DNA of 64,000 bases. It comes from Hormiphora californensis. Its lineage: Eukaryota > Animalia > Ctenophora. The notes beneath the pieces are model-generated. The model was not told where the DNA came from, searched no databases, and was given only the letters and a program-made list of their open reading frames with translations. Position 1 is the stretch's first letter, and each line of letters opens with the position of its first letter. The stretch spans positions 8,122,001 through 8,186,000 of the forward strand of contig CM035354.1 of assembly GCA_020137815.1 (NCBI GenBank), given 5' to 3'. The position numbers were made by a program, and so were the translations under genes. This document shows positions 1,529 through 64,000 of this stretch, one piece after another.

Positions 1529-1542
1529 GTTGCTATGGCAGA
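1529..1542 (+). promoter_or_regulatory. RFX X-box-like motif GTTGCTATGGCAGA
   Basis: The first 12 nt fit the X-box consensus GTTRCYATGGYAAC and the last two do not. It lies ~150 bp upstream of the TMEM232 ATG in a divergent intergenic region. Confidence 0.45.
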
Positions 1543-1681
1543 GACCTTAGAAACATGATAGGCCAGCGCGCACTTTCTGCACACCTTGTGGATGTGTGAG
1601 CTACTGCTAAGTCTTTGTTATTAGTCCGTGCTTGCTCTGATTGTCTTCCCACGTTGCTACAGATTTTAGACCTGCCTCAGA

Positions 1682-3576
1682 ATGCCTGTGGACAAGGTGA
1701 AGGTTCAGCACAAGTTCGGGATTATATCTCACAACCACCGGCAAAACTTGTTGGATCGAATTTCGGTACCTCCATCACCAGTGGGTTTCACAAAACGGCA
1801 ACTTCCATGTGAGATTACCCACGAATTCATCGACTCGTATAACAACTCCCACCCACTTGATCGGAAGCAGTTAGATGTTTTGGCATCACAGTTGTTACTC
1901 CGTGTGAAACGGCGCTCTGGACTATTGAGCGGTGGTATCGGCAAGCACGTTCACATTCCCCGGTCCTGGGTCGAGTTAACTCTTCTCGCTAGATGCCAAG
2001 GACCTTTCCGAGAGCAGGTGCTAGAAGTTCTTCTTGCCTCTCTTATGGTGGCTCCCCCATCCATAGACAATATTCCCTCTCTTTTCCTACTCAGTGAGAC
2101 AGTCGTAGAATGGATTAAGCAACTCGGCAACCCCGTCCCTGAGACAGCGTGGACGAAGGTTCAGATACTAATTCTGTACATTGCGGAACTATGTTTCTGG
2201 AGGATCTACTATCACTCCTTATTGCATCATTTACAAGGCTGCGACTCCTTCCTCTCAGATCTTAGTTGGCACATTGAAAACATGGACTTTGTAAGAAAGG
2301 CTTATTTCAAGTTCCCTGATGGAGAGATGCTGTTACGGCAGATGGAACAGGTGAAACTGATTATCAGTGAGATATTTGAAAAGAAAACAGAAAGCAAATC
2401 TTCAGAAATTACAGCAGGTCTGATGCACGGACTAGATTTCTTCAACTCCATCCGGGCTGGCGGGGACTCAACCCAAACCCTCAGTTCCCTGCTCACCACT
2501 CTCTCCTTACTGGGAACTGAAGGCACTCTCCCAACATTGTCTAACTTGGCAACTACTAACAAACATAGCATGTAGAGATGTCCTCTCTCTTACAGATTAT
2601 CCAGGCAGCAGGGACGGGAACCCTGCCCCTTCAGGAGGGACAGGGGGTGTGTCACCAACACGTTCACACTCTGGCCATGGAACTGTGCTGTTGAGTTTGT
2701 AGAACTCCTCCTGGCAGTAGCAATGAGGGGCTAGAACTAGTGAGATTCAGAGGAGTGCAATCAAGGCTGGTGAGATGAGTGCTGTGAGGGTTGATGGGAG
2801 GCCTGTATTGGGTATTGGGTTGTTAGATCCTGGTTGGGATGAGTGGTAAACTATCCCCATGCAGTCCAGTATTCCTCTCCAGCAGGCTCTAGCACGACTT
2901 CACATCCACGTCTCTAACGATCCCCTGAGAAAGAGTGCCACTCACCTGATCTGGTCAGCTCTCCAGGGACTTAAACAGGCTGCCCAGTCACCGAGTTGTA
3001 GTGGGTATAGCACAGAACAAGAGCGCTAGTTCAGAGGCCGCCCGAGCTACATATCTCCCCTGGTTCTAAACTTGTGTTTGAGCAGATGTTCGAGGCCCTA
3101 TCTGATCACTTCCTTCCCTGCTTCAGTAACAACATCCACAACTACAGCCCCTACTACAGCCTACTCGACTCCTCGGAAGACACCCCGTACCAAACGAACT
3201 GGATCATCAACCACCCCACCTAAACACAATCCCGTCCCGGCTACTACTTCAAATACATCCAAACTCAGTGTTGAGCTTGACCCAGGGTGCCTCAGTAGAA
3301 ATTGAGACCACCTCCACCCAGAAACTGTTTACCAAGCCCCCATTTGAGCCGTACAGAGAACGAAACAACAAGATTCTACAGGACATTGTTACTGACCAAT
3401 GGTATAAGGAGCTGATGAATGTGTTTAGAGCCTCAGAGAAGGCCCACCAGTCGGTGGAGGAGTGTGATGAATACTCAGTTGCAGAGAAGACTTATGCCCA
3501 ACATTTTGTGGAGGATGTCGATCTAACTAAGAGCGATGTGTGTGTTACCATGGACAGACTTGTTGTTAATGAATAA
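1682..3576 (+). CDS. TMEM232: TMEM232-like sperm/ciliary protein (frameshifted after ~2575)
   Basis: MPVDKVKVQHKFGIIS start and HVHIPRSWVELTLLARCQG...LLASL...IPSLFLLSETV...FWRIYYHSLLHHL closely resemble vertebrate TMEM232. A C-terminal ORF lies at 3268-3576. Confidence 0.75.
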
Positions 3577-3680
3577 TAATTGTTGTTATCTAGTTAATTG
3601 ATGTTTTAGAAAGTGAGCTATGATATCTTTGTTACCACTTTGTAACCTCTCTCCTTCCCTTCTCTAGCACCCCACATCTC

Positions 3681-4399
3681 ATGGACTTCTGTGCTTGGAA
3701 GAAGCACCCTCTGGAGGGGACTCCTTCGCTGAGTTCGCCACTTATGAAGACTTCCTGAACTCCCAGATCACCTGCTATGGATCTGTACTATCTAGGAGGA
3801 TGAGGAACTAGCCCGGCAACTTGTCGAGCTGGGTTATCGAGGTAGCGGTGAGGTATTGAAAAGGGAGGAGTTTGAGGCTAGGAAACAGCTTGCTGAGGCT
3901 AGTAGGTTGTCCAAGAGAAGTCAGAAGAAAAGTCTGGCTGGTGCTGGCAAGGATCTTAACTCCATGCCGTTCCTAGAAGCCCTGGCAAAACGAGAGGAGG
4001 CTAACAAAACCGGCAAGATGACCTCTATCATTTTCATCCGGGACAAGAATGCCAGGGGCCAGGAGATTTCCGGCTACATTGACTACGCCCACCGACTAAA
4101 AACAGAGGATTTCGAGCCATACTTCAACGGAAAGAAGCGACTGTTGCCTAAATTATCTGACCTCAGTTTCTACAACTGGGAAACTCAGAAGAGCACATCC
4201 AACGCGACACCCAACTATCAGGTCATTGCTGACAACGCATCAGGATTACTTTTCAAGAACAAGCGAGATAGGAAGATAGTGAATGTAGATCCTAAAGCGT
4301 CCCGACCCGGTGATAACTTCTACAAGGGTACCCATCGCCAGTTCAGGGCAATACACACAAGTTGTCATTTACGATCACATCACCCGACGAAAAACGTGA
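3681..4399 (+). CDS. CFAP299: Cilia- and flagella-associated protein 299 (C4orf22/DUF4464)
   Basis: [96 protein letters not shown] and C-terminal YDHITRRKT*. Several 1-bp insertions. Confidence 0.92.
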
Positions 4400-4621
4400 G
4401 AACTTTTTTGTGCAACCACTCAGAAATATTCCATGAGAGAGATTTCAGAGATATTGAAGACACTTGAATGTTGGACTTATGTGCCGAGTTTAGTTTTGAA
4501 ATAATTGTTGAATTTACACCACGTATGTTACTAAGTGTCTGATTTTACGCACGTGTTTTTGCTATTCACCCCGACCCTACTACCCCCACTAACTCTTCTC
4601 CCGTCTTCCTATCTAGGCCAA

Positions 4622-5641
4622 ATGGGTGATAAGGGTAGGCCTCGATCCAAGACGGGCCGGAGTCCCTAGTAGTAATAACTTGAGACGTTCAGCGAGTAAG
4701 ACAGAGAGTAACTCGGATCCAATCGAGCGAGTGGAGACGCCTGTGGAAAACATAATACCATGGGATGTCTTCACTTCAGAACAAATTCAGTAAGTGTCAT
4801 TTTAGCTCGATTTAGATGAACTTCTCTGTGTCCTCTCCCCTCTTTTTACTAACCTCAGTATCCCCTTCCCAGGTCACTTCTGTCCCTGACGCCCCCTGAC
4901 GCCCTTTCTAAACTGTGTGAACTGATCCCTGCAGCAGACACCCACATCAACCTTCGTAACTCCATCACAGCAGATACATATCTCTTCTTACTACACTTTG
5001 CAAATCAGAACAAACTGAACGAAACTAAAACTGGAGCCCTTATAACCCTCTTCAAACACCTTCTATCCATGATCAAGGATGGGAAATCTCTAATAGACAT
5101 TGTCATGGAGAGCTCCCAGCTTCTCACATGTCAGAAAGATTTCCATCCAAAGATGAAATTTGATTTCTTCTCCAAAGATGAAGTTCTGGCTGTAACTGAG
5201 TACCTGAAGAGTACGGTGTTTCAGCAATTCAAGCTCTACAGGTTTACACTGCTTCAGGAGCAAGAGGAGACAATCATTAGTCTTGAAAAGATCGTCAATA
5301 CCTGTCCACCCATGGGCTCCTTCGATCCTCCACCCCTGGCAGAGGCCATCTCTGAGCACGATATCGAGGTTTATCTGAACGCCCCTCCCCCTGAGAGTGA
5401 GAAAGAGGAAGAGGAGGGTGAGGGTGAGGAGGGGGCAGGAGAAGAGGGGGCAGTGGAGGATAACGGTGAGGGGGCTGCACCAACAACTCCAGTAATATCC
5501 ATGAAGAATGTCCAGACTGTCCTCGATACTGTAGGTGGAGAGATGTTGGACAAGCTAGCCAAGGACATGAGCAACAAATGTGCAGAGAAGGAGAGTCAAT
5601 ACATGAATAGGCTAAATAAGGTTAAGAAATCACTGGACTGA
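4622..5641 (+). CDS. CABCOCO1: Ciliary-associated calcium-binding coiled-coil protein 1 (C1a-32/CLAMP family), 2 exons
   Basis: Exons 4622-4789 and 4873-5641. VTEYLKSTVFQQFKLYRFTL..QEETIIS...PPPLAEAI, an acidic linker, and C-terminal VQTVLDTV...YMNRLNKVKK match the CABCOCO1 layout. Confidence 0.8.
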
Positions 5642-5884
5642 GCTGTGAGGGGTTACTCCCCTATTTTTATAGTGAGTGCTGTGTACGTTAGTAGCTGAAT
5701 TTGTTTTGTAATTTTATTTATTTTAATGGAAATAGCCTGTACATTATATCAGCCAACTACCATTGCCAACCCCTCTCTATTTCAACTTTCTTCCCCTATA
5801 ATCCCAACTACTGACCAGTCTCCAACCCCCCACTACTAACCACCCCTGATCCAGTGTGTAGTATGTTAATCCTGGTAGGAGAGG

Positions 5885-8800
5885 ATGGTTGAGACAGCAG
5901 TACACCCGGAAGTGAGACTTCCGGCCCAGTTCCGCTCCAATGCAGAGGTTAAATTCATGAACAGCATGAGCAGGCCCAAGAAGGTGATTTGCATGATGAT
6001 AATTAATTGCATGATCTGATTCTGTGATTAGTGATGTTGCACTGCATGTTCTGCTTGAAGAAGTGATTGAATTTTTTGTAACCCCTTTCTAATTCCGTTC
6101 TTCAGAAAAGTGTAGTGAAGGCAGGTCGGATCCCAATCATCCAGGCTGAGCACAGTAAATCCAAGTGGCCCGCTGGTAATCCAACTGATATCAAACACGC
6201 CCACGAAGAGGAGAACTTTGAACAAGCAAGGAATGAGTCACACTACGCTAGCAAGGTAGCTAAACCATTTTTAGCTCTATCACCGGTCCTTGGCTTCGAT
6301 TTTGAGCTCTATTGAACTCTTGAGCACCCGCCCTTTGCTCTCCGCGTGTAGGCAAATGGCACGTTTGATTGTTCACGGGGCAGTGAATGCTTGCCAGTCA
6401 CTCAGCATCTTACACACAAACATGCACGATTCCGAGAACAGCACTAAACATATCCCAAAGCATTCTTATCCTTCCAAACTTCCCAACTCTCCCTCACCCC
6501 CACCCCATACATCTTCACCACCCCTCACCCCTTCTGTCCCCTACCAGGAAGTAGAGCGACTGCAGGATGACATCAGGTCAGGTGAGGCTCCCAAGAGTGA
6601 CATCATAGAGAGGATAACAGAGAGTAGACACCAGCGACACAAACAAGCACTAGAGGATCTTCATGAGGAGCTGGGACACCTCAACAAGACTATCGATCCT
6701 CAGGTATATTAATTATTGTAGTTTGTAGCTTGTATTTCCCTTCCGACCTCTCATAAAAGCAGAGATGGGAGATTGAAAGTTGTTACAAATTTAGTTGTCC
6801 CGTCAGTTCTTATCCAAATTTACCGACCGCTAACGCCCCTCTCAACCAGGTCTACCACCACTTGGAAGCGTGTGGAGAACAGACAGGATGGATTCTCTCT
6901 GAGCTCCAGATCCTATTCTCATCCATCCAACATGACCCCATTCTCTACTCCTACCCCCTGAAGCAACTGGAGGCAATGTGGGATGATATGGTGAAACTGT
7001 TACAAAAACGCAGTAACCTGATCTTGGAGTTACGTGATCAGATCCGACAGAGTGAGCACGAGAGAAAGGATCACATATCAGATCTGTTCAAGTACTATAG
7101 CGACCAGTTCCATAACATTGCCTACCTCTCCACTGATGAAATTAACGTGCTGATGGATAAGGAGGTATATGCTGCAAACAGGCTCCTGTTGTGCAACTAC
7201 AAACGATACGCTGAGATCATATCACAGCTACAACTAGAGAACGTGACGAGATTGAGGCAGATGAGGGGTAAATGGGAGGAGAGACTGGCTACATGGCGGG
7301 ACCTCCACATCACCAACACTCGAGACAAGTTTGTAGCATTCATGGAGACTCCTGCTATAACTGAGTGTCCTGACATCCAGGCCATTGTACAGAGAATGGA
7401 GAAGGAGAAGGCGTGTTTTATGGAGAGGGGCGAGACTAAGATGAAGGGTGTATTGAAACTACAACCACCCAACATCAACACCCAGAAAGTTCTCTCTTGG
7501 TACGAGGATGTATGTCAACTAGTGTTGAAAATAGAGAACACCCACAGGCAGTACATGGCCCAACTGGAAGGAAAGGGGAACTGGATAGTAGCTGACTGTA
7601 TTGGTGTTGCTGATGAGATGTTAGCTACCCTTCAAACAGAGGGAGTTAGCTCTGCGGAGGAAGTTGCCACACTCAAGGAAACTGAGTTGTTACCCCTGAT
7701 CGAGCAATGGAGGGAGAACCATCTAGCGGCCATCTTGGAATGTGAGAAGGAGTTCACGGAGGGTTCAGCAGATTTCAATGCAAACCTGCACGTGCTGTAC
7801 GAGTTCCATCAGAAGAGTGCCGAGATATGGATGGAGTATACCACTCAGATGACAGCAAAAGAGGGTGATCTGGTAGGGTTGATGAAGGAGTGCCGCTCTA
7901 AACACGATGAGATAAACCAGGGGTTGGAGAGTGCTCTGGACATGGAGATGGACAAGATGAGACAGGACACTAACGAGGCTGAACTGGCAAGAAATCTAGA
8001 GAAATCTGTTGAGAGTTTGAAGGAGATAGCATCAGCTTACAATGCCTTCAAGGATGAGTTAGGAGAGGTAATTGAGAAGTATCCAGACATGATATCTGTA
8101 GAGCTGGACAGGTATTCCATCAACATCAGGAGACACCTGGGGCAGGTCATTGAAGAAGAACAACCTGTCGAGAAGGAGGAGGAGGTGGACCCGAGAAGGA
8201 GGAGGGGAGCCCAGAGGAGGATATGGGTATTACTGATCCTAAAACAGAAGAAAAGGTAGATGAGCCATCTACAGAGAAGGAGGGAGATACAACTTTCCTA
8301 ACTGAGGTCCCTGCCCCACCTCCCATCCCTACCTACTCCGACCCCGAGTTTAGTGCCATTCAAGAGGAGTTGGTCACTATACTCTTGGACCACCTAGCTC
8401 TCCTGAAAGATCAAGTTATGGAGGATGCAAGTCAGGGTGTTGAAGAGAAGTTGAGTGAGTTGAAGAGCGAGATAGAACTCAGGCACCACATCCACGCGCC
8501 TCGACCCATGCGAATGAAACTTGACATCTACAATGTTCGACTGAATGAGCTGAAGGGTCACGATGAGAGGGTCAAGCAGCATTCCGCTGGAGTCGCTCTG
8601 GAGATAGCGACACTAAAAGGACAATTCAAAGATAAGGGAGCTGAACATGCTGCTCTTAGTAGCAAGTTTAAAAAGATGGTAGAGAAATGTGAGAATGTCC
8701 TGCCAACCCTAGAGAAGAGTGCACAGCTGAGCTCTCTGCAACAAAAGGTAGCATCAGCATGTGAGGAACATGTTAACCTGATCAAGACGGAGCTAGCATC

Positions 8801-10715
8801 ATTCCGGAACAGCATGGAGGAGAAACTAAATGACCTCAGAGAGAGTAACCAACACTTTGGTCTTGCTTTTAAACCCTTCGCGGAGGGTGGTAACTTTGGT
8901 CCGGAAGAGATTAGAGAAGTACAGGAAGAAGTTGGAGAAGTGTAACCTGAAGATAGACAACTGTGAGACGTTCATCCTCACTGAAGCTAGATGGGATGGA
9001 GACCAAGTGTCTAGAGGGGGCTGCAGAGATATCAGCCAGTTTCGAGGCCAGGCTGAAGATGTACATTCTAGGATGTTGCATTCCACGAGAAGGTCAATAG
9101 TTGGATGTCTAACTTGTCAGGTGAAGATAAAGACAGAGGTGGCAGGCGTGTAACATGATGTCAAAGAATCTGAAGCACAGAATTGAGAAGTTGAAAACTC
9201 TGATTGACAGTTGTGCTAGGCCCCACCCAGATAAACCAGTAGGTACGGCCGGTTGAGGTGATAGCTGTTATACCAGAGATATATGATCTCTTCCAGAAGC
9301 GAATCAACTACCTGGATTGCTCTAAGGCAGGGAGTGCTGCCACTGCCGCTGCCAGTACCACTGTCAAGATTGCACCTGAACAGACATCAGCTGTGACTGC
9401 TACCGGATCAGAGATTATTCAGCCTGAGTATGATATCCACAGCGTGGTGAATCTGACCAAGAACATCATGAACCTCACTAAGATAGCCAGGGAGTGGACT
9501 GGGCACTGTGAAGTGGGAGGTACTGGAGGGGCTGTAGAGAGGAAGAAAGCAGCACCAGCAGAACCACTATATGCCTGGTTTGTAGCTAGGCAGGAGAGGG
9601 AGAGGGTTGCAGTAGCCCCTACTAAACGGGGTAAGAGCAGGGGTGACACTGCAGAGAGGAAGACAAGGTTGGGTTCAGGCTCCTCTAGATCATCCCTGAT
9701 GTCCTCAGTACAGACCGATGTGCACTCCTTCATGCCTCTAATTAAGAAGATCCTACAAGAGACCCAGGGGGCTCTGTTTCTGTCCAGTGAGACGTACTAT
9801 TCCCAGTGTACAGGTGGACCACCCCAACGTCCTGACATTGCTGACACTATTGAACTGTGTATGGAGGGGTTAAACAAGCGTCTAAATGGGTACTACATTC
9901 AGGCAGATGACTACTTCAACAAATGTATCCAGGATCTCAGGGCCCTGCTCACAGAGTTCCTATCTCTACACCTGGAGATACCCCAACTGCTATTTAGTGA
10001 GATATTGGAGGGACACCTAACACGTGTCTCCCAGGCTACATCACTAATAAAACACGAGTTTGAACGGAACAAAGCCAAGATCCACGAGCAGAGAGAGTGT
10101 AACAAGACATCACTGAAGCCCATCTTGGGTCACCCCAACAATGAAGTAGACCTGAACAATCTGTGTATGAGGGAGGAGGATAGGGCGCTATACTCTAGTG
10201 ACACCCTCAAACAATATCTCAACGAGATGACCAACACAGAGACAGACATCGCTAAATCATTCGTCAACTCAGTCAATACCCAGACCACAGAGCTACTAGA
10301 TCTGTTTGATAAACTGATGACAACAGATGATGTAATAAAGGGGAAGACTGCAGAAAAGAAACTACCAACTACTGTCCTGCTAAAACAGGAGCTCAGAACT
10401 GGGGCTATAACAGGTGCTGCAGATGCCAGACTGACTAAAGATGGTAGATCCATTAGGTGTCTCAAGTTGTCTGACATCACAACAGGACGGAACTCGACTG
10501 ACAGTGGAGCTACTGTTACCACCAAGTTCACACCGGCCCACTCAGCTGCAGTAAAGGCCAGGGATGTGGTAGTCAAGGAGTTTTCTAACCGGTATTGTCA
10601 TGTGATTGAGGAGCTGGATCTAACATCCTCTAGATGGGTTGGGGATGAGGACAAATGGAGCAAACAGTGGGAGACTTCCATCGTGCATGTAAGAAATCTG
10701 TATAAACCAGCGTAG
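5885..10715 (+). CDS. CCDC180: Coiled-coil domain-containing protein 180 (DUF4455 + DUF4456)
   Basis: In-frame exons 5885-5983, 6106-6254, 6548-6703 and 6850-10715 (frameshifts ~8240, ~8930, ~9150-9250). Motifs ESRHQRHKQAL, RHHIHAPRPMRMKLDIYNVRLNEL, FAEGGNFGPEEI and LKPILGHPNN. Confidence 0.85.
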
Positions 10716-11255
10716 AAACTATTTGAGATTGTAGTGAGGGGAAATTGGGGTAAATTATTTAGTGATCTAGGAGGGAGGGGTTTTTATTTGTTTTTTGTTT
10801 CAGTGTCCAGCACAGTTCACACACACATCACAACCACACACTTTCATTTCAGAATGCCAACCTGCCCATTCGAGATTTCTTCATCCACGCCTTTCAAAGA
10901 CTCTACTTCTATAATAGCAACTACCACGATTAACACTCACACACTCAATTATTAGTTTTACCACCCTTTAGATTTTACCGAAAATATTTTAGCACCGGAG
11001 TTTTATTACACACATATTTTATGAGAACGGGTTTTTCATTTTAAAAAGTTCACGGTTGTGTGTGTCTTGAAGACATTTTATGTTTTAGATGTGTTGAAAT
11101 TTTATACAAAGTTTTACAAAACTGAACCCAGCCTATGATTTGCCAACCTTTTGGGTTTTACCCTCCCCAACTCACCTACCTAACCCCGCTGTGACCATAT
11201 TAGGGCAATAATCCTCAACTAACCTCGTTGTGACCATATTAGGGCAGCACATGTA

Positions 11256-14200
11256 ATGCCATCCCTGCAAAAGTCTGAGCTCCGGCTGCTCCGTCCCTCG
11301 ACCCGATGTGCCACCCTAACAGCCCGACCTGACAACTACAAGAGCAGTAGCAAGGGAGGAGTCACCCATCATGCACCCCGCTCCCCTGATAACGGTGAGA
11401 TGTACAGTGTGGGTCGTGGGATATTACCCCGATATTGCTGGGGTAGAGTTTGATAACCAGATATAGTTGTTAGAAGTACTGACCATTATCTCCCTATTTC
11501 AGATGTTTCCAGTGCGTTTCTCACTGCTGTAGATGTAGAGGAGACTACAGACAGACAGCCTGATCTGACTGGAGAGGAGCTATTGTCACAATTTAAAGAT
11601 GTCGTCAAGACTCGACATGGCGAGATAAAGCAGGCATTCTACTCTTTTGATAGTGACCGAAGCAGCTTTGTATCCCTGTCTGAGTTCAGGAAGATTATTG
11701 AGAACTTCGTGTTCCCGCTCTCTCACTCTCAATATGATCAGTTGATAAAGCGGCTTGATGGCATCACCAACAACAGGCTAAATTACGGGCAGTTCCTGTT
11801 TAAGATCAGTAGATCCAAGACGAAGACCCCGGCTCTAGGTCGCATTACCCCTGCTAATGACTCTCTGGATAGTATAGTGGGGAAATTGCAGGAGAAACTG
11901 AGAGAGAATAGTGGGAAGATTTTCAAGGCAATGAGGATGTTCGATCAGGGGATGAAGGGACGGATCAAGAAAAGTGATCTGAAGAGAGTTATTGAAAACT
12001 TTGCTTTTCATCTGTCAACAGAACAGTTTGAAAGGTAAATAGTCAATTCAGCTCTAATAAGTTCTAACTCTCTATCATCAAGACTAACATTTGACACTAA
12101 CACCCCCTCCCTTCCAGACTTTACAAGCACTTCTCCACTTCTAACGATGGTACGATTGACTATGTCACCTTCCTCAAGTCAGTGTCCGCTACCCGTCTAC
12201 CCATCAAGCCAGCCTCGACTAGTCCTACTAACGCTCTGGTGATATTTGAAGAGGAAGAAGCAGAACAAGCAGCAGAGGCAGAAGCCAGGAAACCACCTGA
12301 GCCACTGTGGTGTGAAAGTGTTCCCCTAGTGGAGGTGGAGATACGACTTAGAAATAAGGTACGGTCCCGGATCTAGCAAATATCTGCTTTTTTTAGTCTC
12401 CACCCCTTCTTATTTCTAACACTTCCCCTCTATCTAGATCAAACACAAGATCCAGATCCTTTACCGTACCTTCAAATCCATGGACATCCACGGGGAAGGC
12501 TATGTAACAATCGAGCAGCTCCGAAGGGCTCTGGACAAGTTTGCCTTCCAGATGACTGATGGAATATTTGAGAAGTTGATGGAGAGGCTGGATGTGAAGG
12601 CGAAATACAAACTGAGATATGAAGTGTTCCTTGATAAGTTGCAAGATCGGAGGGTCGGGGGTTATGGGCAGACTCTTGTTATGAAACCTAACCATAAGTA
12701 AGTTTAACACCTGCCTCCTTTTTTACTGACTCGATAATCGATCTCTTGATCTGCCATGACAGCTAGTGTGCTAAAATCCACTCCCTAGGTACTTCCCTAT
12801 CATCGAGAGTACAGATGAGCCTAGTCTGGATACGCTGTTAGCGAAATTAAAGACCAAGATTCTAAACGGTTACAGCTCGATCCGACAGGCCTTCCTAGTG
12901 TTCGATGAGGTACGTGTGGGATGTTACCATGGTAACAATATGGTAACATGGTAACGGGGTGTTACCATGGTAACGAGATGGTAACACATAATGATAAACT
13001 TTAGTATCTAGATGGTAACGGGATGGTATCACATAATGGTAACATGGTGTCATGGTAACATTACTTTCAGAACAAGACAGGCAAGGTGGCAAGAAGAGAT
13101 TTTAAGAATGTTATTGATGGATTTTGTTTCCGGCTCTCAGATTCCCAGTTTGCTAAACTAATGACTATACTGGATCCTGGCAATAAGGGATATGTTACCT
13201 ACCCAAACTTCTTCAAACTGTTCGATGAATCTGAGACTAGTGTGAGTTGTATGACGTCAGTCATCATGTGTGACGTCACAGATCATGTTGTTACATGTAA
13301 TCTGCTACTTAATTGTTACACTAACATGCACGAACACATTCATTGTCACACTGTAATATTATAGCATGACGCCCTAATAACTCCCTTCCCTTCTCTCATC
13401 AGGAGGGCCACAAATGGCTGACCTCAGTTCACCGTGTTAACAAGACAATCACTCCTCAATTCATGGAGGATGTTCAGTTTGAGGAGGTCCTAACCAAGAA
13501 GATAACTGATGAGAGGAAACAGGTTGCCCTGGCATTTGGCCAGTATGATAAAGAGGGGACTGGAGTGGTGTCCAAGTCAGAGCTGAGGAAGTTCCTTGAA
13601 CGGTTTGGAGTTCCTTTCTCCAGGGTAAGAATCAGTCTTACTCTTAGATCTGATTTGGGGAACTTTCTTAGTCTGTAATACAAGTCTGACTCCCCCCTCT
13701 CCTCAGACCCAGTTTGATAAACTACTAAAGCGGTGTACAGAGAACTCAGACGGTACAGTCAACTTCTACCAGTTCATGTCCAAGATAGGGGTGGATCTAC
13801 AGGCCAGTGATAAGGGTTTCAGTCAGCAGATAGCAGATGAGAACAGGAAGATGGAGTATGATAGGGTGAAGAATCATAGAGATAGACTGGAGGTAGTGGC
13901 ACAGAGGGCTATAGATCACACTGGTACATTAGGGGTGGATAATGTGATAGGGCAGTTACAGGATTACATGCATCAGAGAGCATCTGATATGAGGAAATTG
14001 TTCCTGAAACATGAACAGGATGGGAGAATTAAACGAGGCCAGTTCAAAAAGGTACTGAGAATGGACTTATCATAGTTTTGAATAGTTCCCAACTCAATTT
14101 CAGGGAATCTGAACCAGGTCTTCTCTTTCAGTTGTTGGCCAAGGCAGGTTTTATAATGGAGGAGAGTCAATTCAAGGACCTATGTCAGCGCATGTCTATT

Positions 14201-17200
14201 GGTAGGAGTATCTCGTATGGAGAGTTCTTGGACCACTTCCAGAGTAGCTCTAACTGTGAATTTGGGGAGAACTTGAACAAAACAAACTGGGTGAGCGAAG
14301 TTAAAGATCTGATGATCAGGGCATTTTGAAAATTACATACTACCCATTACTCTCCCTCAGAGTCCCAAACTACCCACTCCCTCCCTCAGAGCCCTAAACT
14401 ACTCCCTCCCTCCCTCCCCTCAGAGCCCCAAACTAATCCCTCCCTCCCTCAGAGTCCCAAACTAATTCCTCTCTCCCTCAGAGTCCCAAGATAGTAGCAG
14501 GAGCCCCTGTTACTGCAATGCCATACCAAGAAGGCCTGGCGCTCCTCCGATCCAAGATCCAGAACAGCTACAGAAACCTCCGAGCAGCATTCCACGCTAT
14601 AGACAGGGACGGGGACGGGTTGATAAACAGGACTGACTTGGTTGCAATCCTCACCAATCTACTGATACCAATGAACAAAGATGATATCTCTGATATGTGG
14701 AGCAGTATTGCAGGGGGAAAGAAGAGGCTGAATGTCCAGCAGTTTGTATCTGTGTTTGAGGATGCTGAGGATGTAGAGACCCACAAGTGGTTGGTGTCTG
14801 TTCACAAACCTGTACCAGCTGCTGACCCCTCTCCGCTGAGTGGGGAGGCTGTGTTGAGGACTTTCAGAGTGAAGGCACTGGACCAATATTTCTCACTTAA
14901 CAAGGTATTTAGTGGGGCTGATAGACTTTTGATCCAGGTTTAGTGACATGTTAACTGTTGACTAAACTTCATTTTTCAGTGTTTCACTGCTTTGGATAAG
15001 GATGGAAAGGGACGACTAAATAAGAAGAAACTGAGGCAGGCCCTTCATGACTTCTGTATCCCTATTAACAAAGAGGAATTCCAGAAACTATGGAAACAGT
15101 AAGTTATCTTTTCTGAGATTTCTATAGATTTGAGTTCGAAACAATGCCAAACTTTTATTCCCCCGCCCCGACCCCATAATAACAATTTCTCCCACCCCAG
15201 TTTCGATGATGATGGGACGGGTTACATTGATCACGAGAAGTTTGTACGTCGCACAGCTGAGGATTTCAATCCTGGTGACGATGCAGGAACGAGTCACCAC
15301 ATAGTGGAGAGTAGTGTCAGTAGAGCTGAACAGTTCAGCACTGACCAAATGGTCAGGAGAGATGACCTGCTAGTTAACCAGATTAACACTCTCAAGTGCA
15401 TGAGCAATGAAGAGCTGGAGAGACAGTTCAGGTAAGAGAGATGAGTCTCCTATCCTGTCTAAAATTGCAAGTTCTGATTCTATTCCTGAGCTGCAGAACT
15501 GCTCTTGTTGGGGTGTCGTGTATGGAGGGCGCGGAACAGTTCTTGTGATAAAAGTGCGCGCCGCTCGCACTCATCCTTGGCACATTGCATTGGCAACCGT
15601 GTGTACAAACAGTAAATACATTTCATGTATACCATCGCGGTAGTATACATTGTATAAACCCCCTCTCTCTTCCAGGTTGAATATGCACGAACACTATACC
15701 AACCTGCGGGCTGCATTCAAGGCATCTGACAAAGAGAGTCTGGGTTATCTGAGAAAGATTGATCTGAGGAGAATTCTCTTTGAATTCAATTTCCTGGTCG
15801 ATGACGACCAGTTCGATTTTCTGCTGAAGCGATGTGGAATGGAAAAGAAGAGCAGAATGAGCTACGAGAAATTCCTGAAGTTCTTTGAGGGCCCTCAAAC
15901 AGAGGTGGCAGGAATTGATAACTTTGATGCTCTAGAAAACAGGTCAGTTACATAAATCTACCGAAATAGCCCCGAAGCAAAGTGTGTTTCATAACAATAA
16001 TATCCAACCCCCACTACTCCCTGTTTTAACCCCTGTTCTATCCCCTCAGGATTGCACCATTCATCGCGTCCTACCCTGATCTCGGTTCAGGCTGAGGCAT
16101 GTGCCCGTATCAAGTACTGTGCCAGTGAAATCAAGGAAGTCCTACTCCAAGCGTTCACTGCTGTAGATACCAGGGAATATGGGATAGTGGGTGCTGATGC
16201 TATAAGGAGGGTTCTGGATAACTTCTGTTTTATCATGACTGATAAACAATTCACCGTGAGTTGAACTTGACTCGCCCTCTCTCTTTTCGACTACTGTCCA
16301 CTAAACCCCCATTGCTATAACTCCCTCCCTTCATCTCCCAGTATCTAGCCAAGAAGCTGCCCTATGTGTCTGATGGCCGGGTTGACTACAAGCTGTTCCT
16401 GGAGTTCTGTTCTGACTCTGTAGACGATACTGTTGATATAGAGAGTTTCAAGAGGGAGAGCAAGGGATGGCTGGAGGCTGTATTGGGCAGTAACAGGTCT
16501 ACATCCACCAGTTCAATGTTTTGGAGAGATACACCCACTGCAGGCCGTCTATCTAGGAGATCCAAATCGGTAAGTCAAGGTAGATCCAACCCTCCTGGAT
16601 AGTAACTAAACCCCCTCCCTATTGCAGTGTACCAATCTGCTGTCTAAGAAGAGTAGTGGCGGGACCACTGCACCCTTCGTAAACGCAGATCACATCGAAC
16701 AGAGGCTGGACCCTGTCATGCGAGATAACTGGATGGATCTGCACAAGGCATTCAGATCTCTTAGTAGTGACGCCTCTACTGTCCCTGAGGCTGCCTTCAA
16801 AGGTAGGGAAATGGGAAACTAGACAATGGACAATAATCCAGAATCCTGATTATATTACTGAACTAACCCTCCACTATCTCCCAGCCGTTATTGATAGACA
16901 TGCTGGTAGCCTTGTCTCTGCTGAGGACCTGGCCCTGTTGTGCAGGAAGTACGACACTAAGGGAGATGGGAAGGTTAACTATTCTAGTTTCTTAAAGAAG
17001 TTCTCTGCTCTGGGTCGAATCAGTGCTCTCGAGAGACCCTCCTCACAAGCAAGTGAACACGATGTGAGTTGACAGATCATTCAGGGTTCTACAAAAGTAC
17101 AAAACTAAACACTATCAATCTTAGTTCGACTTTATTCCATTATTCATTACCCCCTAACTCCCTACTCTCCCCTCAGTCCCTCCACTCTGGCCGAATATCC

Positions 17201-17718
17201 AGTTACAGCTACAACCTCTCTCGAGCTGCATCCTGTACCTCCCTAGACCTCCGTCCCGAGTCTGCTAGGTCTGTATCACGGTCCCTGTCTAGTCAGATGG
17301 GTGTGAGACGATCTACAACCAAACTAGGAGATCTGACACCGGGACCTGGTATTGATCCACCTCACTATGTGATCAGAGACATTGCTGGTCATGTGATACA
17401 AAACTGGAAACAACTGAGAAAGCTGTTTAAGGTAATTTAACTCTGACCCAAACCCTGTTCAGTATGTAAGACACTGGATATCTAAAAACCCTTTCACTCT
17501 TTCTAACACCCCCTGCCCCCTCCCAGGAGTGTGATACGAGTTCTAAAGGTTGGATCGGAACATCTGACTTCAGGAACTGTATGCGACGGAATCATGTCGA
17601 TATTTCAGAATCAGACTTTAGCGATCTTATCAGCTTTTATGAGAGCCAATCGTCTGGGAAGGTGTATTATAATGATTTCTTGAGAGCATTCCTGTCAGTT
17701 AGTAAAGACTTTGCGTGA
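11256..17718 (+). CDS. EFCAB6: EF-hand calcium-binding domain protein 6 (DJBP), ~20 exons
   Basis: Many paired EF-hands (e.g. FYSFDSDRSSFVSLSEF, FHAIDRDGDGLINRTDL, YDTKGDGKVNYSSF), a Ser-rich linker, and a final exon GKVYYNDFLRAFLSVSKDFA*. Consistent GT-AG introns. Confidence 0.85.
12923..13062. repeat. Intronic ATGGTAAC minisatellite containing two perfect GTTACCATGGTAAC palindromes
   Basis: Perfect palindromes at 12923-12936 and 12961-12974, plus several half-sites. Confidence 0.85.
14340..14490 (+). repeat. Tandem ~30-bp repeat duplicating an EFCAB6 3' splice site
   Basis: CTCCC(C)TCAGAG(T/C)CCYAA occurs five times; the last copy is the real exon start. Confidence 0.8.
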
Positions 17719-25567: not shown

Positions 25568-33166
<7,599 letters not shown>

Positions 33167-37200: not shown

Positions 37201-37792
37201 TGGAGGGAGACCTCATTCTCACATCCCCATCTTCATCTATATCCTCTCTGGATTCTCGGTGGAGATTCTGTAGGTATGTCCGGGCCCTGTCTAACAGAAT
37301 ACTCGGGTCTTTCACATCCTCCTGGCTATAGAAATGGGGGTCGAAATGTGGTGAGTTGTACTGCCCCTCAGTGTTCCCTTCTGCGTAGTATGAGTACAGA
37401 CCGAACTGGTAGGATGACAGGTCGACGGGTTCATTGCCTGTTCGGGTACCTCTACCAGCAGCGAACCTGCCGGGAGGTGGAGGGTGTCGTGTGGGGGATG
37501 AAGGAGGACTGATTGGTTCTGGTTTTATCATCAGCACACCGGGTATAAACTCTCGACCTGAAAGCAAAGAGAAAAGTATTAGACACATAGAATTAGAATA
37601 AGACACTCCCCCTCCCCTAAATATCACACTAACATTACCTGTTGTTGACACTGTGTTATCCCCTGCTGTAGTGTCCCCCTCTGTAGAGACTGGAGGTGTA
37701 GTCTGCATAGCCACAAAACTATCTGATCGTCCCAGTGGAGGGAGGCCATCTGATCGTCCCAGTGGAGGGAGGTTATCTGGTTCATTTGCCAT
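34262..37792 (-). CDS. Large uncharacterised low-complexity, probably nuclear, protein
   Basis: 1185-codon open frame with ATG at 37792 after an acceptor and a probable intron at ~37558-37637. NLS-like RRRKKKKKK and multiple (I/V)KxE(P) motifs. No recognised domain; 3' end uncertain. Confidence 0.7.
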   Translation of the reverse strand: MANEPDNLPPLGRSDGLPPLGRSDSFVAMQTTPPVSTEGDTTAGDNTVSTTGNVSVIFRGGGVSYSNSMCLILFSLLSGREFIPGVLMIKPEPISPPSSPTRHPPPPGRFAAGRGTRTGNEPVDLSSYQFGLYSYYAEGNTEGQYNSPHFDPHFYSQEDVKDPSILLDRARTYLQNLHRESREDIDEDGDVRMRSPSKSHRPMYERREGSRKRRRIEICIRRERLDDDTRSWLEERYPSGAKESKWREVLERREGQCSSLGAGKPYSQSFAWIIEDDIKEEIVENGYVEENGYLEEVERGGSGAVREPYTMRRRKKKKKKNEKVVPISIKQEIFESTGGTQPSPPLAPSSPTLLEQPDPTSEHPDPTSTDGGVKVKEEPIDSDQMIEIFKKRVKKLRNLGVTPLIKEEPVEFEDIDVPDLMGDIRVKQEPQDDSPLLRFEPKPRMRSTIRPKFVYSRRMQAGHRKSFPPPRFPDTEETDFDTAAELTCPFSPPKATWSSATETETPTTSQDTEGEESDPEVTSAIDRLIESASIKTLEDTELMYKLFKLALQGNTDPSANVFNIVLEMFKKSKSNTTPSSTPPAKPEVSEKEVVRVPFPMSDQEIYNQGEKVSPTKPAVKPAVTPSKHPRHVTPSPSRHPKPVVTPPGPETVVQHEEVVIEQEDGEREGNISLQQPELKNDGKQSRECSFGSDKTTSRSNLNETEKLFNDVLQPSTSFPSLAGEVPGPGYHIDHTGHLFSNLDDLIKVPLAHSSNLIRPKPSYGRMSSYHENSNESAERGDEGWQWRGGVPGTGRTPHESFENFQPWNMEEGGGWSPPQQSIYDCYFEQPPGPSSFEADKRLDSSSWMEGGRRVIAVEHRTVQTQYPHSSTCLAVEVTAPTTSYIVQRQDSVRPIACQTTLSYASSHCLAPADSVLVEPLLSARKVSRSHGSGYARLATQRRSILTQFPAHNTVYPAFEPSLPFLCYPRPNRSPRDVTTQTDGHTSHPRRLRPVLVEPVPNITPIGENVRTMRSSDAYGRLMEQIRTSNDPSFDRFMNSQIPPTNGTVSRYNKYSCYAPQGRLMDLPLTVKKNYPRKGGGGGGLGKGKRPGMTYKEVTPKPNPPIHSNQGESKESSERVYFPIQPLSLFVVTQQLLISYFIPRFDSLPNISENQEDWAGREYYWTTVDYEEDKKER

Positions 37793-38045
37793 GCACCGCT
37801 TCCTGCAAGAGGGTAGCAACTAAGTTGTGTGCGCGCGGCACTTTTTAGACACCCAATAGCTGACAACAGTGATCTCGCAACATACAAAACTTATCAAAAC
37901 TAGCAATACAAAACACTTTAGATTCACTCAGATCGGGGTGCCTCACTTTAAAAAACACACTCCAGCCAGCTGGAATTAATCAGAATTCAAACAGAAAAAC
38001 ATTTAAACGAAGATAAAACATCTAAAAACTAATCTCCCATCTCTC

Positions 38046-38953
38046 TCAGTCGCTACTGCTCGCATCGGAGTCTGTGCTCTGAGGATTGCTTTCAGTCATT
38101 GGCGGGGCGGGTTGATCAGGGTTGTCTAGATATACAGGGTCTAACCCCTCCATCTGCATTTTAACATGTAGTGCAGCAGGTGGAATTCCTACTGTCACCA
38201 TCTTGAAATATTTAGCGTAGCGAGGATCCTTACTGACTGGAACAAAATCTAGGGGAGGAAGGAAGGGTTTAGATAGGAAAAATTGAGTAAACCTTGTTGG
38301 GGATTAAAGAACGCAAGTTATGTGAGTTTGATATTTTGTTTAGTACCTGGTTGTGCAGGTACCTCCTCTACTACAGTAGTCTCCCCATCCTGCTCTACAG
38401 TACTAGAGGGTGCAGGGGGTGCTGCTGGGGCAGGGGGTGCAGGTGGAGCATTAGGAGGGGGTGCAGGGGCTGCTTCTGTTGGCTGTGTTGTTTCTGGTGC
38501 TGCAGTTACCCCTTCTAGTTCAGGAATACTGGCCAATTTAGCTTCTAGTAGGAGAAGCGTTGTTTCGATCTGTCTAGACCGTCTGTCTATCTCCATCAAA
38601 CCACTCTCTGCTCTACACGCGAAATTGTTTAGTAGACCGGTCATCTGTGGAAGAGAGGGGTATTATAATAGGAGGGAGAGAGAGGTCCACATAATAATAA
38701 AATGGTCCTGAATATGGCGATACCTGGTCCTGAATATGGCGATACCTCCAGACCAAAAGGGGATAATTCACATCAATCGAATCAAAATTAACCCAAAGAA
38801 AGCAACATTGGTCCCATTAGTAGAACACTACAGTAAAACACACACCTGTATAACGAAGTGGTTAATGTAGGCTAGGGTTCGTTTCTGCTGGAGTGGCTCT
38901 AATAACTTCAGGTCCACTTTCTGGCCTATTATGGGCACTCCATCTGCGTCCAT
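38046..38953 (-). CDS. WASHC3: WASH complex subunit 3 (CCDC53), 3 exons
   Basis: MDADGVPIIG..VDL..PLQQKRTLAYINHF, IETTLLLLEAKLASIPELE and KDPRYAKYFKMVTVGIP...KMQMEGLDP. Confidence 0.93.
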
Positions 38954-39093
38954 TATATAGTGCCACTGTTATACCCCACACACACAGTAGTTAGGCGGGG
39001 AGTCTTCCTATCTACATACTTAACATGCTACAGTGGAGGGAGAGAGAGTGAAGGGGGGGGGGCTAGGGATTGAAAGCCAGGGGCCCTAGTTTT

Positions 39094-39163
39094 TACACCC
39101 CCTCACCAGTCCCCTTGCTCCCCAGGCTATAGTCTATGACAAGGGGACTGGTGAGGGGGTGTA
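39094..39163. repeat. 24-bp perfect inverted repeat between ATP5PB and WASHC3
   Basis: TACACCCCCTCACCAGTCCCCTTG ... CAAGGGGACTGGTGAGGGGGTGTA. Confidence 0.85.
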
Positions 39164-39310
39164 TCTGGATAGTTGGACACAAAATAGAGCTACTCTTCTT
39201 CAAAACTGTGACACACAATGTAGACATTTAGAAAAGACACATATCACATCACTAGTTTCTCTCTCACTCTCTCTCTTTATAAATTAGTGTCCGAAGGGGA
39301 TTTAACAGAA

Positions 39311-40575
39311 TCACTGGGAGAGCATGCCAAGTGAAGCAATACACTGGTTGATATTGGCCTCCTCTTGTTCTGGGGTAATACTGGCAATAACCTCGCTCTC
39401 CAGCCAGCCGATAATGTGGTCCCTGATAAACGCTTTCTTTGTGTTCTCCAGTTCAACCTGGGAGAGGGAGGGGAGGGGGTTACTGGGGGAGGATGAAGGA
39501 GGGGGTTAGTGAGCCCTGACTGAGATGTGAGAGTGATGGTGAAACGGGAGGGGGAGTTGGAGTGATGCTGTGAGAGTACTCTCAGAGTAGACGGGACAAC
39601 TAATGAAGAATATGATTGCATTGATGTATAGAGCAGCACAAGACAATATAATGAAACCCCCAAATACAAATGAAATATAGCTTCTGCAGAACAAACCAAC
39701 ATGACCTCTTTCTCACATGCAAACACACATGAATGGTGGGTAATAGCACTATGTACCTGGTAGTCGAGTCGTTTCTTGACCTCTACTGAGACCTGTTTAA
39801 TCCTCCTCCTGTATTCTGCCTCTACCTCCAAGTCAGCCAACTCTCTCTTGATATCGAAGATATCGGAGGAAGCAGCGAGGGAGGCAACAGCGGCCTTCTC
39901 CTCAGCGATGGCATCTGTGTAGGCCTGCATCTGGATCTGCTTACCTGGAGGAGATGTGGAATCATTGGAAAGTAGGAAAAAGAAGAACGATTTTACTAAA
40001 AATAATTAGGGAGGGTTGACTTGCTGGACCCTCTGACTGAGCCCCGGTTATAAGATAACAAGGGGAGTGGTGATGTATAACATACCTTCACTCATGGTAG
40101 CCTCGATGTTGGCGGTATATTTATCAAGAGCCTGGATAGCAATGGGGCCAATCTTGGTGGCAAGACCGTAGGTGCAACTGAACAGGAAAAATCCAGCAAG
40201 AACCTGGCAAACAGAAATTAATGATAACCTCCGAATAATTAACTTTTGACTTGGTGTAATTCCCACGATATTAGGCAAGATAACAAATAACTCTTTCTTA
40301 CATCAGCATCAAGGACGACCATTTCCTTGCTGACTGCGGTGGCAGTAAGACCAGCAGTAAGGATAGCCATTCCAGTCTGGCCCTGAGTCATACCTCCCTG
40401 TTTAGGGGCCTCAGCTACATCTGAAGGGGTGAAGAATATGTTAAACCTCACAAATGGCATCGTGTTAGATTATTGTTCAGAGATTCTTCTTACCAGAGGC
40501 AAATCGAGCAGATGCAGAGAAGATGGGGAGTTTAGAACCCTGTCGGGCGGCCAGCATACAAGTTCTGCTCAACAT
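39311..40575 (-). CDS. ATP5PB: Mitochondrial ATP synthase peripheral stalk subunit b, 5 exons
   Basis: Presequence MLSRTCMLAARQGSK, SKEMVVLDAD, DIKRELADLEVEAEYRRRI..VEVKKRLDYQ and IGWLESEVIASITPEQEEANINQCIASL. Confidence 0.9.
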
Positions 40576-43879: not shown

Positions 43880-46800
43880 CCTAAGTAAAGACTCTACCAA
43901 AAGATGCTTTTCAACGTCTCTTTTAAAGCGGTCCAAGACTCAGTTGATCTTAGTCCTCTTGGCAGTTGATTCCAAAATCGAGGGCCACAGATACGAACGC
44001 CTTTTCGCTGAGTTTGTATTTTGTCCTCGGTGTCTCCAAAAGAAGGTGGTCATCATCTTCCTGAGGCTCATGGACTTTCTCCTCTTCTCTTCTCAATCGG
44101 TCGGATAGATACCCCGGAGCAAGGCCATTTACACATTTGTAAACCAGTACACAGATCTTGATTCAATCCTCTCAGCAACTGGAAGAAAGTGTAATGCTTC
44201 CTTAGTAGTTAGTAGTACCTCTCCATTTCTTTGACCATAAACAAATCTCGCTGCTGCATTTTGAACTTTCTGCATTCTGTCGAGGTTCTTCTTGGTGATC
44301 CTACCAGAAGGAATTGCAGTAGTCTAGCTTAGAATGCACTAGGCTTGATACGAGGGTCGTCCTGAGTTCTTTTTGATAGTTGCCGCCTATCGCCCGAGTT
44401 CACTAGCGTAGCGTTGCATGGCTTTTACAACTCTAGTTACATGTTCATCAAAACTTAGGTTTGAGTCAAAATATACCCCAGGTTCCTCACAGATAAGCGA
44501 CGGGCAAAGGATCACATATCCGTTGACAGCTGAAAGGAGTTCTGAATATCATTATCCCTAGGTGATAGAATCAGATTTCAGTCTTCGATGGGTTGAGGCG
44601 TAGGAAGCTAGATGTTAGCCAGGACCGTATACAGCTGTACAATTCTGCAGTCTCAGTTCTGTGTCAGCATAATTCTCTGAGGAGAAAGCAGCATAGATCT
44701 GAGTGTCGTCTGCAAAGTGTATGTGCACACCATGCTTTAGGGCGATAGTTCAGTTCAGCTGTGTAACATATAAGAGTATGGGACCCAAAATAGATCCCTG
44801 TGGAACCCCAATACCAATGCCCGTAAGAGCTGATTAACGTCTCCAACCGAAACTGATGCACTTCTCCCCGAGAGGTAGCTTTCAAACCATGCCAGGGACG
44901 TACCTTAAATCCAAACAACTTCTGAAGACGTCGAAGCAAGACTGAGTGATTCACAGTGTCAAACGCTGCACTCATATCTAAGAGTAAAAGAGCAACCTTG
45001 ATTTAGAGTCAGTTAACATCAGCAGGTCGTCCAGAATTCGAAGAGTTGCCGTCTCACAGCTTTTATTGATCGGTAGGCTGATTGATTTTTGGGCAGCAAC
45101 GCATTTTCCTCCAGGTGTCTGACAAACTGATCAGCAGCACACTTCTCGATCAGTTTTCCAAGAAACGGTAGGTTGCTGACTGGCCTATAATTGCCGAGGT
45201 CATCTGGATCTAAGTCAGCTTTTTTGATGAGGGACGAATTAAAGCAGTCTTTAACTCGGACGGAAAAACCCCTGTAGACAGGCTAGTGTGACAATCTGGG
45301 CAGGATGGGTAGAAAGTTCAGCGAAGAGATTATGCACATATGAAGTAGGAGAGGATCTAATCACAATGCTTTGTTCCCATATCCAGTAGAGTTGAACGAA
45401 GTGTCTCATCAGAAACGTTTCGTAAACTTGAAAGTAGGTGCTGTTTTCTGTTGAGTACTGGTTTCCTGTGAAGGGGGCATATTCTCCTGTCGCTCTTCTC
45501 CATGGGCCTGGTAGATCTTTTCAACTTTTCCTTTAAAAGCGTTCATAAATGCCTCAGCAAGGTCAGTATGCTCGATGTTGCCAGGTACAACCACTGGCTT
45601 CTCCCTGCCCAACAGAGTATTTGCAGTCTGCCACGTTCACGAGGATCGTGTCGTTGCTTCCAGCTTTACAGTAAAAAAGCCTTCCCTTACACCTTTATCA
45701 CCCTCTCCGTCTCTTTCTCCTGGGCTTGGACCCTGGAAAAGTTCAAGTAATTCCAACGGTTTGTAGATTTTCTCAGCTTACCCTGTATTTCTCTCTTTCC
45801 CTCTTCGTAACCTCTTCGCCGTTTGACATTCTCAAGTTTTGATTATACCACTGGACATTTCTCGTTTTCACTTTCTTGGTAACATAGGGTGCTCTCTTGT
45901 CCAATAAAGATCGTGTTACAGAGTTGTAGAGACTCACACAGCCATCTAACTCATCCGGTAGTTCTCCGCAAGATCCAGTCGAGTATGTCCATCCTGAGAT
46001 CCTCTATATCGAAGTCCTTCATCATCCGACTCGTAACTATTTTGTATTCTGAGGTCGTACTTATACCGAAACGTCAAAAAGAAGCTCACAAGAGAATGAT
46101 CGGGCAGTACCGAGACCGGTAACGTCAACATCACTTAAACCGATATCCTCTCCTTCCCTAGTTAGCACCAAATCCAGAGTTCCACCTCTCGAGTGAGTTG
46201 GGCCTACCACGTTTTGTATCCAACCTTCCGAGTCAATTAGTTCCTTGAAACGTCTTGTAAAACTATCAGTTTCGTCCTGAAATCTAACATTGAAGTCACC
46301 CAGAAGGATCGGTACACCTCCTTTCGAGATAAATGACGATAGGTAGGCACTGAATTCAGCTAAAAATTGTGCATGTTCATTTCCAGTGCGGTAAATCACT
46401 GAAATACGGAGACCTACACTTCCCTTTACAAATGCTTCTGTGCACTCAAACGTTCTCGATTTAACGCTCTGCCTGTTAAACTTTATATCATCTCGAAAGA
46501 TAAAGCCAACACCACCACCTCTCTTACCCCCACGTCTCGCCGCATTAACCAGTGTGTACCCAAACTCCTTGAACTCAACCGCTAATGCCGATTCATCTGA
46601 ATTTAGCCAGGTTTCTGTCAGCGCCAGTATTGCCAAATTGTGCTCGACCATCATTTCTATTACCGAGTAAACTTTATTTCTTAGAGAAAAGCAGTTCGCG
46701 AGACCAACCTTCAATGACCTACACTTAAGTCGTTGTCCCTCATTCCTCCTCAGTTTTTTGAGTTCTTTAGTTTGAGCAGGTACACAGGACAGTCAAATGA

Positions 46801-47290
46801 TCCGGCATTATGATTACATGCTCTTCCCCTCAGTTGCGGATCCCTCCCTCTCTTACAGTTCACACAACATACCTTTGATCTGTCAGGACAGTCTCTCGTT
46901 CTGTGGCTTTCAGCACAGAACATGCAAGAAGGTTCGGTCTGCTCACATTCGTTCGACTTATGTCCAAATCTCTGGCATTTGAAACATTGAGGAATGTAAT
47001 ACCGGTCTTCAACTCTACAAGAACTATTTCCCACGTACAAGCGACCTCTAGCCGTAAGGAAGTCTCGGATTTCACACGATACCCGTACTCCCACTGATGC
47101 CCTCATCCTATCCCCGGACTTACCAACATACACAACATCAAACTTATCTCCCCTCTCAATCATCGCTCTCACCTCAGGATTCTTCATCTTAACCGCATCT
47201 ACTATGTCGTTATTGAGTTCGTCACGTGAAACCCTGTCAACCCACCTTTTTACTTCTTTGGAAAATATCGCTGTTTCAGCTCGTGTTGAA
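43880..47290 (-). mobile_element. LINE retrotransposon (L2/CR1 group), 5'-truncated and frameshifted
   Basis: ORF1 remnant 46750-47187 has CCHC knuckles (CFKCQRFGHKSNEC, CMFCAESHRTRDC). APE domain 46061-46714 (LALTETWL, LGDFNV, GGTLDLV). RT motifs include YRPVSNLPFLGK, MSAAFDTVNHSVLL, ADDTQIY, LDYCN and QKVQNAAAR. Confidence 0.9.

Positions 47291-47958: not shown

Positions 47959-64000
<16,042 letters not shown>

Follow-up and report, generated by a model that had tools for sequence, protein, structure and literature searches.

A conserved cluster of five ciliary genes with operon-like junctions in the ctenophore Hormiphora californensis

Operons resolved by spliced-leader trans-splicing have been described in C. 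elegans, Ciona, Oikopleura and chaetognaths, where co-oriented genes are spaced ~100-250 bp apart (PMC7986045, PMC12460157; here and below, published work is cited for those parts of each source that were accessible to us). The median spacing in C. elegans operons is ~100 bp (PMC7986045), and a 250-bp cut-off has been applied to those of chaetognaths (PMC12460157). Among non-bilaterians, the Hydra RFC140-flp bicistronic operon has a short intergenic region with a poly(A) signal, a pyrimidine tract and a trans-splice acceptor (PMC3273482). In ctenophores, spliced-leader trans-splicing has been reported for Hormiphora and Mnemiopsis, with leaders that mostly share the conserved 3' end AATTTGAG, and a leader is present on no fewer than 56% of the long reads from Hormiphora (PMC8527503); operons were unreported in this phylum as of 2021 (PMC7986045). 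Here we describe a cluster of five genes, TMEM232, CFAP299, a C1a-32 family gene (CABCOCO1-like), CCDC180 and EFCAB6, in a 64,000-nt stretch of the H. californensis genome (contig CM035354.1, positions 8,122,001 to 8,186,000), hereafter the window. The cluster is conserved and its junctions are operon-like. It is similar to the Hydra operon in the make-up of its intergenic regions and to the other animal operons in co-orientation and spacing, and the same mode of resolution is proposed for it. Ctenophores trans-splice most of their mRNAs, and this locus supplies named junctions at which to ask whether operons exist there.

All five genes, none of them paralogous to another, lie on the + strand, as a preliminary description of this DNA had it, and the stop-to-ATG gaps that it gave approximately are exactly 104, 222, 243 and 540 bp, so that three of the four fall below the chaetognath cut-off even when measured from stop to ATG. 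RNA evidence came from three runs, all as assembled contigs from related strains or species. Splice acceptors were scored with a model trained on 20 introns of the cluster genes, partly predicted, against a background of 396 exonic AGs (maximum 8.9). In the third gap, the 3' untranslated region (UTR) of the C1a-32 gene (5642-5732) ends at a poly(A) site at 5732, where one X2 oligo-dT contig ends in 18 non-genomic A and the genome continues as TAGCC with no A tract. The spacer that follows (5733-5884) holds just 122 nt between this site and an acceptor at 5854 (score 10.5), with the ATG of CCDC180 a further 30 nt on; it is intron-like in composition, with a C skew of 0.72, no CpG and a CTAAC branch motif. 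Gap 1 (3577-3680) contains a strong 3' acceptor that ends at 3667, 13 nt before the CFAP299 ATG (score 16.8), and gap 2 (4400-4621) one that ends at 4616 with a CTAAC branch motif (score 13.6). Thus, the acceptors before CFAP299, the CABCOCO1-like gene and CCDC180, three of the four downstream genes, score higher than every one of the 396 exonic AGs and fall in the range spanned by the 20 cis acceptors, and those upstream of TMEM232, the first gene, are weak (best 2.6). In gap 4 (10716-11255), X1 and X2 RNA contigs spanning 10647-10935 carry the CCDC180 3' UTR to at least 10935. A weak duplicated acceptor follows at 11203 and 11242 (scores 0.8 and -1.3, each with CTAAC at -24), at most 268 nt beyond the covered UTR. 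This junction anatomy would be that of an operon resolved by spliced-leader trans-splicing, for which the cluster is a candidate.

We estimate a probability of roughly 0.6 that at least TMEM232 to CCDC180 form one transcription unit, and the main argument for this operon is that gaps 1 and 3 leave little room for a promoter. The odds that all five genes belong to one unit are somewhat below even. EFCAB6 membership is the weakest link, with about even odds between a fifth cistron and a linked gene with its own promoter. In the operon, a single promoter at ~1.2-1.65 kb, upstream of TMEM232 and possibly controlled by an RFX-type factor, would drive one precursor from which each upstream gene is cleaved and polyadenylated; a leader would then cap the next cistron at an acceptor ~50-250 nt downstream of the poly(A) site, with predicted additions at 3667, 4616 and 5854, and the genes would be co-expressed in cells building motile cilia. 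A poly(A) site of its own is shown directly for one of the four upstream genes, the CABCOCO1-like gene. Full-length orthologues are found on contigs about one gene long (863-1272 nt for CFAP299, 1044-1640 for CABCOCO1, 2135 for TMEM232 and 4674-5061 for EFCAB6), with the exception of one CFAP299 entry on a 2,207-nt Logan contig. Mature mRNAs therefore look monocistronic, and the term polycistronic can apply to the precursor only. The single polycistronic unit put forward in the preliminary description is thus partly supported, through its operon-like anatomy, in which a strong acceptor follows a poly(A) site at a distance of 122 nt. No RNA contig listed bridges any of the gaps, of which gaps 1-3 have little or no cover, and such contigs cannot show absence.

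The identity of the genes was supported by several lines of evidence. TMEM232 (1682-3576), apparently a single exon frameshifted in the assembly, matches its Pfam profile (PF15877, E 6e-30); X2 contigs cover it with gaps over 2312-2956, and a 623-amino-acid orthologue (P0155) tiles 1682-3567. CFAP299 (3681-4399) matches DUF4464 (E 1.5e-71), a Bolinopsis CFAP299-like protein and a solved structure in the PDB (E 5e-99). The third gene (4622-5641, with an intron at 4790-4872 seen as a joint in an X2 RNA contig) matches the CLAMP/C1a-32 profile (E 4e-14), a Bolinopsis CABCOCO1-like protein and FAP114/CFAP119/FAP119 in the PDB (E 2e-8 to 3e-5). Judged by its sequence, this gene belongs to the C1a-32 family and is CABCOCO1-like, its orthologue being either CABCOCO1 or CFAP119. 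The gene identities given in the preliminary description are otherwise supported. CCDC180 (5885-10715) matches DUF4455 (E 1e-69) and DUF4456 (E 4e-42) as well as FAP76 in the PDB (E 4e-31). Its introns at 6256-6547 and 6704-6849 are present in X1 RNA contigs, and its ATG at 5885 and its first intron are predicted. The multi-exon EFCAB6 (11256-17718) matches EF-hand_11 and further EF-hand families and a PDB entry (E 3e-107); several of its introns are seen as RNA-contig joints, and a 1485-amino-acid orthologue (P0243) tiles 11256-17703.

All five genes thus have a ciliary or flagellar link, which bears out the earlier claim. Four of the proteins (EFCAB6, CCDC180/FAP76, CFAP299 and the C1a-32 family member) have a relative in a solved axoneme structure. 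The five proteins belong to different axonemal structures and not to one complex. TMEM232, for which a search of solved structures returned no PDB match, depends for its ciliary link on the sperm phenotype of a mouse knockout alone (PMC10296807). The reading frames of TMEM232, CFAP299 and CCDC180 switch at many 1-nt insertions or deletions in the assembly. Those at 3771, 3795, 4317 and 8913 are absent from RNA contigs, and the frameshifts are therefore read as assembly errors; a pseudogene reading was rejected on the same ground. To our knowledge, the five genes are not adjacent in human. An early intron that DNA-derived protein calls imply for CFAP299 in other ctenophores is seemingly absent from the window (3681-3795).

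Linkage of these genes is partly kept in other ctenophores, as a synteny comparison suggested by the preliminary description indicates. In Mnemiopsis leidyi, near-consecutive locus tags belong to CFAP299 (ACHWQZ_G009894), a CABCOCO1-like gene (G009893) and EFCAB6 (G009891), on contigs of one size, and the single accession slot between the latter two, G009892, may correspond to CCDC180. Furthermore, all four ENA entries of TMEM232 on contigs longer than 10 kb match CFAP299 or CABCOCO1 entries in contig size (283982, 57730, 125227 and 50293), equal size being taken as the same contig, and two of these four contigs fall in a distinct ctenophore clade. Three further contig sizes (11633, 5971 and 5228) are common to CFAP299 and CABCOCO1 entries. 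Conserved gene order is reportedly rare in ctenophores (PMC8527503, PMC9949713), and the largest colinear blocks between Hormiphora and Mnemiopsis comprise four genes (PMC8527503). Additionally, 68 CFAP299 loci were collected from metagenome contigs, of which one (L001) was placed in ctenophores and 67 were unclassified. None of the 68 had a cluster neighbour at E 1e-3, and there was one marginal EF-hand match (L008) at E 1e-2. Because only 27 of the 68 loci reach 5 kb, this result supports a restriction of the cluster to ctenophores only weakly.

Upstream of TMEM232, a head region of 472 bp (1210-1681) is common to the cluster and to a divergent gene, and is likely a bidirectional promoter. 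Its CpG observed/expected ratio is 1.0, and its CpG density is 5.3 per 100 nt, compared with 0-2.8 for the four gaps. It also contains an X-box-like site (1529-1542) with 2 mismatches to the X-box consensus, the only such match near the start of a cluster gene, the gaps having none. The whole window holds 15 X-box-like matches against 1.9 expected. Similarly, CGCGCA occurs 16 times in the window (2.5 expected), three of them in the head (1441, 1479 and 1567) and none in the gaps. CGCGCA is also found inside introns and is therefore no proven promoter mark. At 1441, 21223, 33722, 37830, 42214 and 57422-57622 of the window it often forms inverted pairs; several of the matches are upstream of gene starts and others are intronic. 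The divergent gene (1-1209, - strand, ATG at 1209, continuing past the left end of the window) is expressed and spliced, with three CT..AC joints in X2 RNA contigs. It belongs to no known family; four of its exon pieces gave no Pfam match and two pieces no PDB match. It may be a sixth co-regulated gene.

The ctenophore CFAP299 contig L001 (tree support 100/99) has at its 5' end TATTTACTAATTTTAATTGAG, 21 nt ending in TTGAG and placed 13 nt upstream of the start codon, just as the CFAP299 acceptor is in the window. L001 probably represents spliced RNA, since the DNA-derived calls that cluster with it (P0234, P0037) begin later, as an early intron would force; its 5' end as a leader trace would be a weak lead. 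L001 also extends 527 nt beyond the CFAP299 stop (746-1272), well past an AATAAA ~150 nt after the stop. This tail, which could be a long UTR, read-through or a chimera, showed no match to the next cluster gene. A search of the window with three short leader motifs taken from PMC8527503 yielded 4 scattered matches and no leader gene.

Several observations weigh against the operon. Among the RNA-contig loose ends listed (18 of 44 and 6 of 14), none carried a leader on the five genes, the 5' ends of genes 2-5 being little covered, and the 5' end of L001 could equally be an acceptor that was left unspliced and has CTAAT as its branch motif. An acceptor before the ATG is also expected for monocistronic trans-spliced genes, so that the acceptors do not discriminate between an operon and separate promoters. 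In addition, the EFCAB6 acceptor is weak and its upstream gap is the longest of the four. Donor-like GT dinucleotides at 3613, 4523, 5683 and 5739 (scores 4.0-4.7, lowest in the training range of 4.0-10.7) would allow the acceptors to be read as those of cis-spliced 5' UTRs; at a further one, at 10750 (score 7.3), RNA contigs run through unspliced. Regarding conservation, the Mnemiopsis locus tags show order, neither strand nor distance, and those identified include neither G009892 nor TMEM232; the two accessions from Bolinopsis, with numbers 314 apart, have only chromosome size in common. With respect to expression, CFAP299 is among 55 comb-row-enriched genes common to Beroe and Mnemiopsis (PMC11184263), and a search of that supplement by neighbouring identifiers and four gene names found no other member; this comparison has small weight because both tissues compared are ciliated. 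Searches by gene name or Mnemiopsis identifier gave no match in the supplements of PMC13331133, PMC11797021, PMC10876535 (one scanned file unsearchable), PMC6278862 and PMC10580291.

The main rival, which we regard as unlikely, is a co-regulated cluster in which every gene is driven by a compact promoter of its own and carries a short outron, and gene order is held by shared enhancers, possibly at X-box-like sites within EFCAB6, that reach several promoters. Mnemiopsis enhancers are mostly intronic and genes within loops retain synteny (PMC12221973), and the innexin cluster is conserved and co-expressed in ctenophores with no operon proposed (PMC9949713). The best X-box-like matches are not those of the head region but fall within a WDR62-like gene and one of the introns of EFCAB6. 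Within the EFCAB6 intron (12910-13070), four X-box-like palindromes lie at 12923-13059, two perfect (12923 and 12961) and two with 2 mismatches, and these may be an intronic enhancer or a simple repeat. X-box-like palindromes are also clustered at 55346-56251 and 59729-59777, in or near the WDR62/MABP1-like gene, as either intronic RFX sites or a repeat. Gap 2 contains 6 CpG and one CACGTG. Given how densely CGCGCA occurs across the window, its absence from the 1.1 kb of gaps is to be expected; it is present in a gap of 254 bp outside the cluster, so that a short gap may contain a promoter. On the other hand, gap 1 measures only 104 bp from stop to ATG, the 122-nt spacer of gap 3 looks like an intron without CpG, and the four gaps together have no X-box-like or CGCGCA match.

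Less probable still is that the genes are incidental neighbours, in a compact genome that is rich in both short co-oriented gaps and ciliary genes and in which the block has merely remained unbroken. Tight spacing by itself is unexceptional: a second co-oriented run in the window (37792-40575, - strand), formed by genes for ATP synthase b, CCDC53/WASHC3 and then a large gene of unidentified family, has gaps of ~360 and 254 bp, and four-gene colinear blocks between distant ctenophores are on record (PMC8527503). What chance does not readily give is a ciliary or flagellar link in five of five genes and linkage that recurs in Mnemiopsis and in contigs of other lineages. The number of co-oriented runs of five ciliary genes expected by chance is 0.0003-0.03 per genome, that is, at most 0.03, for an assumed ciliary fraction of 5-12%, 13,000-19,000 genes and a category picked post hoc. 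In the housekeeping run itself, the first gap contains only 2 CpG and, 12 nt upstream of the ATG, an acceptor-like site, which makes the ATP synthase b/CCDC53 pair a candidate housekeeping dicistron.

Finally, a stable polycistronic mRNA or fusion protein, with the gaps cis-spliced out or read through, is very improbable: a P. bachei model (sb/3460625) that joins CFAP299, CABCOCO1 and CCDC180 into 1866 amino acids, the weak donor-like sites within the gaps and the CFAP299 entry on the longer Logan contig would suit it, but the poly(A) at 5732, the separate stop codons, full-length orthologue contigs with about one coding sequence each and the annotation of separate genes in both Mnemiopsis and Bolinopsis speak against it, and the fusion-protein reading was rejected. 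Segment by segment, this P. bachei model (P0222) matches the window at 86-100% identity, with the exception of a single frameshifted patch (48%). The fused model is read as an annotation artefact, for which the tight cluster accounts.

Other features of the window include a single-exon DAO-family oxidoreductase gene (31026-32171, - strand), apparently nested on the same strand in an intron of a MAP-kinase-kinase-like gene that begins near 33234 (kinase subtype assigned by eye). Two open reading frames at 46061-47298 (- strand) resemble by eye the zinc-knuckle and endonuclease parts of a retrotransposon of the long interspersed nuclear element type. A glypican gene (59742-61728, - strand) is convergent with the WDR62-like gene.

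Our literature searches, largely confined to papers outside subscription, returned no ctenophore operon later than 2021 and no report of this cluster or of an animal ciliary operon. The words operon and polycistron are absent from the Hormiphora genome paper (PMC8527503) and the chromatin-loop paper (PMC12221973), and operon is absent from the Beroe genome paper (PMC11184263) and the innexin paper (PMC9949713). In its full form, the operon hypothesis holds that an RFX-driven five-gene motile-cilium operon has been kept since the split between Pleurobrachia and the lobates, and that ctenophores, the sister group of other animals, have operons, possibly many, in which axoneme genes are grouped for the building of comb plates or sperm; as a whole, this is a tentative proposal, a little less probable than the five-gene unit taken by itself. 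If true, it would suggest why gene order is conserved in rare cases among ctenophores, and would link TMEM232, which has been little studied, with motile cilia in animals other than mammals. The Hydra operon differs from the cluster in that it joins two functionally unrelated genes and is experimentally proven (PMC3273482), whereas the cluster is a candidate that would unite as many as five genes for a single organelle and is conserved in more than one species. Among the genes of chaetognath operons, metabolism and germ-line markers are over-represented and cell-type specificity is low (PMC12460157), and a one-organelle operon would be unlike the mostly housekeeping and germ-line operons of other animals. 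The ctenophore innexin cluster INXB-D shares with this locus a rare conserved microsynteny, proposed to be held by regulation, but consists of tandem paralogues over 20-40 kb, while the genes described here are non-paralogous and 0.1-0.5 kb apart (PMC9949713). Lastly, the cluster resembles the RFX/X-box ciliary regulon in having an X-box-like site upstream of ciliary genes; in that regulon every gene has an X-box to itself and the genes are dispersed, whereas here one upstream site, with 2 mismatches, may serve a linked set.

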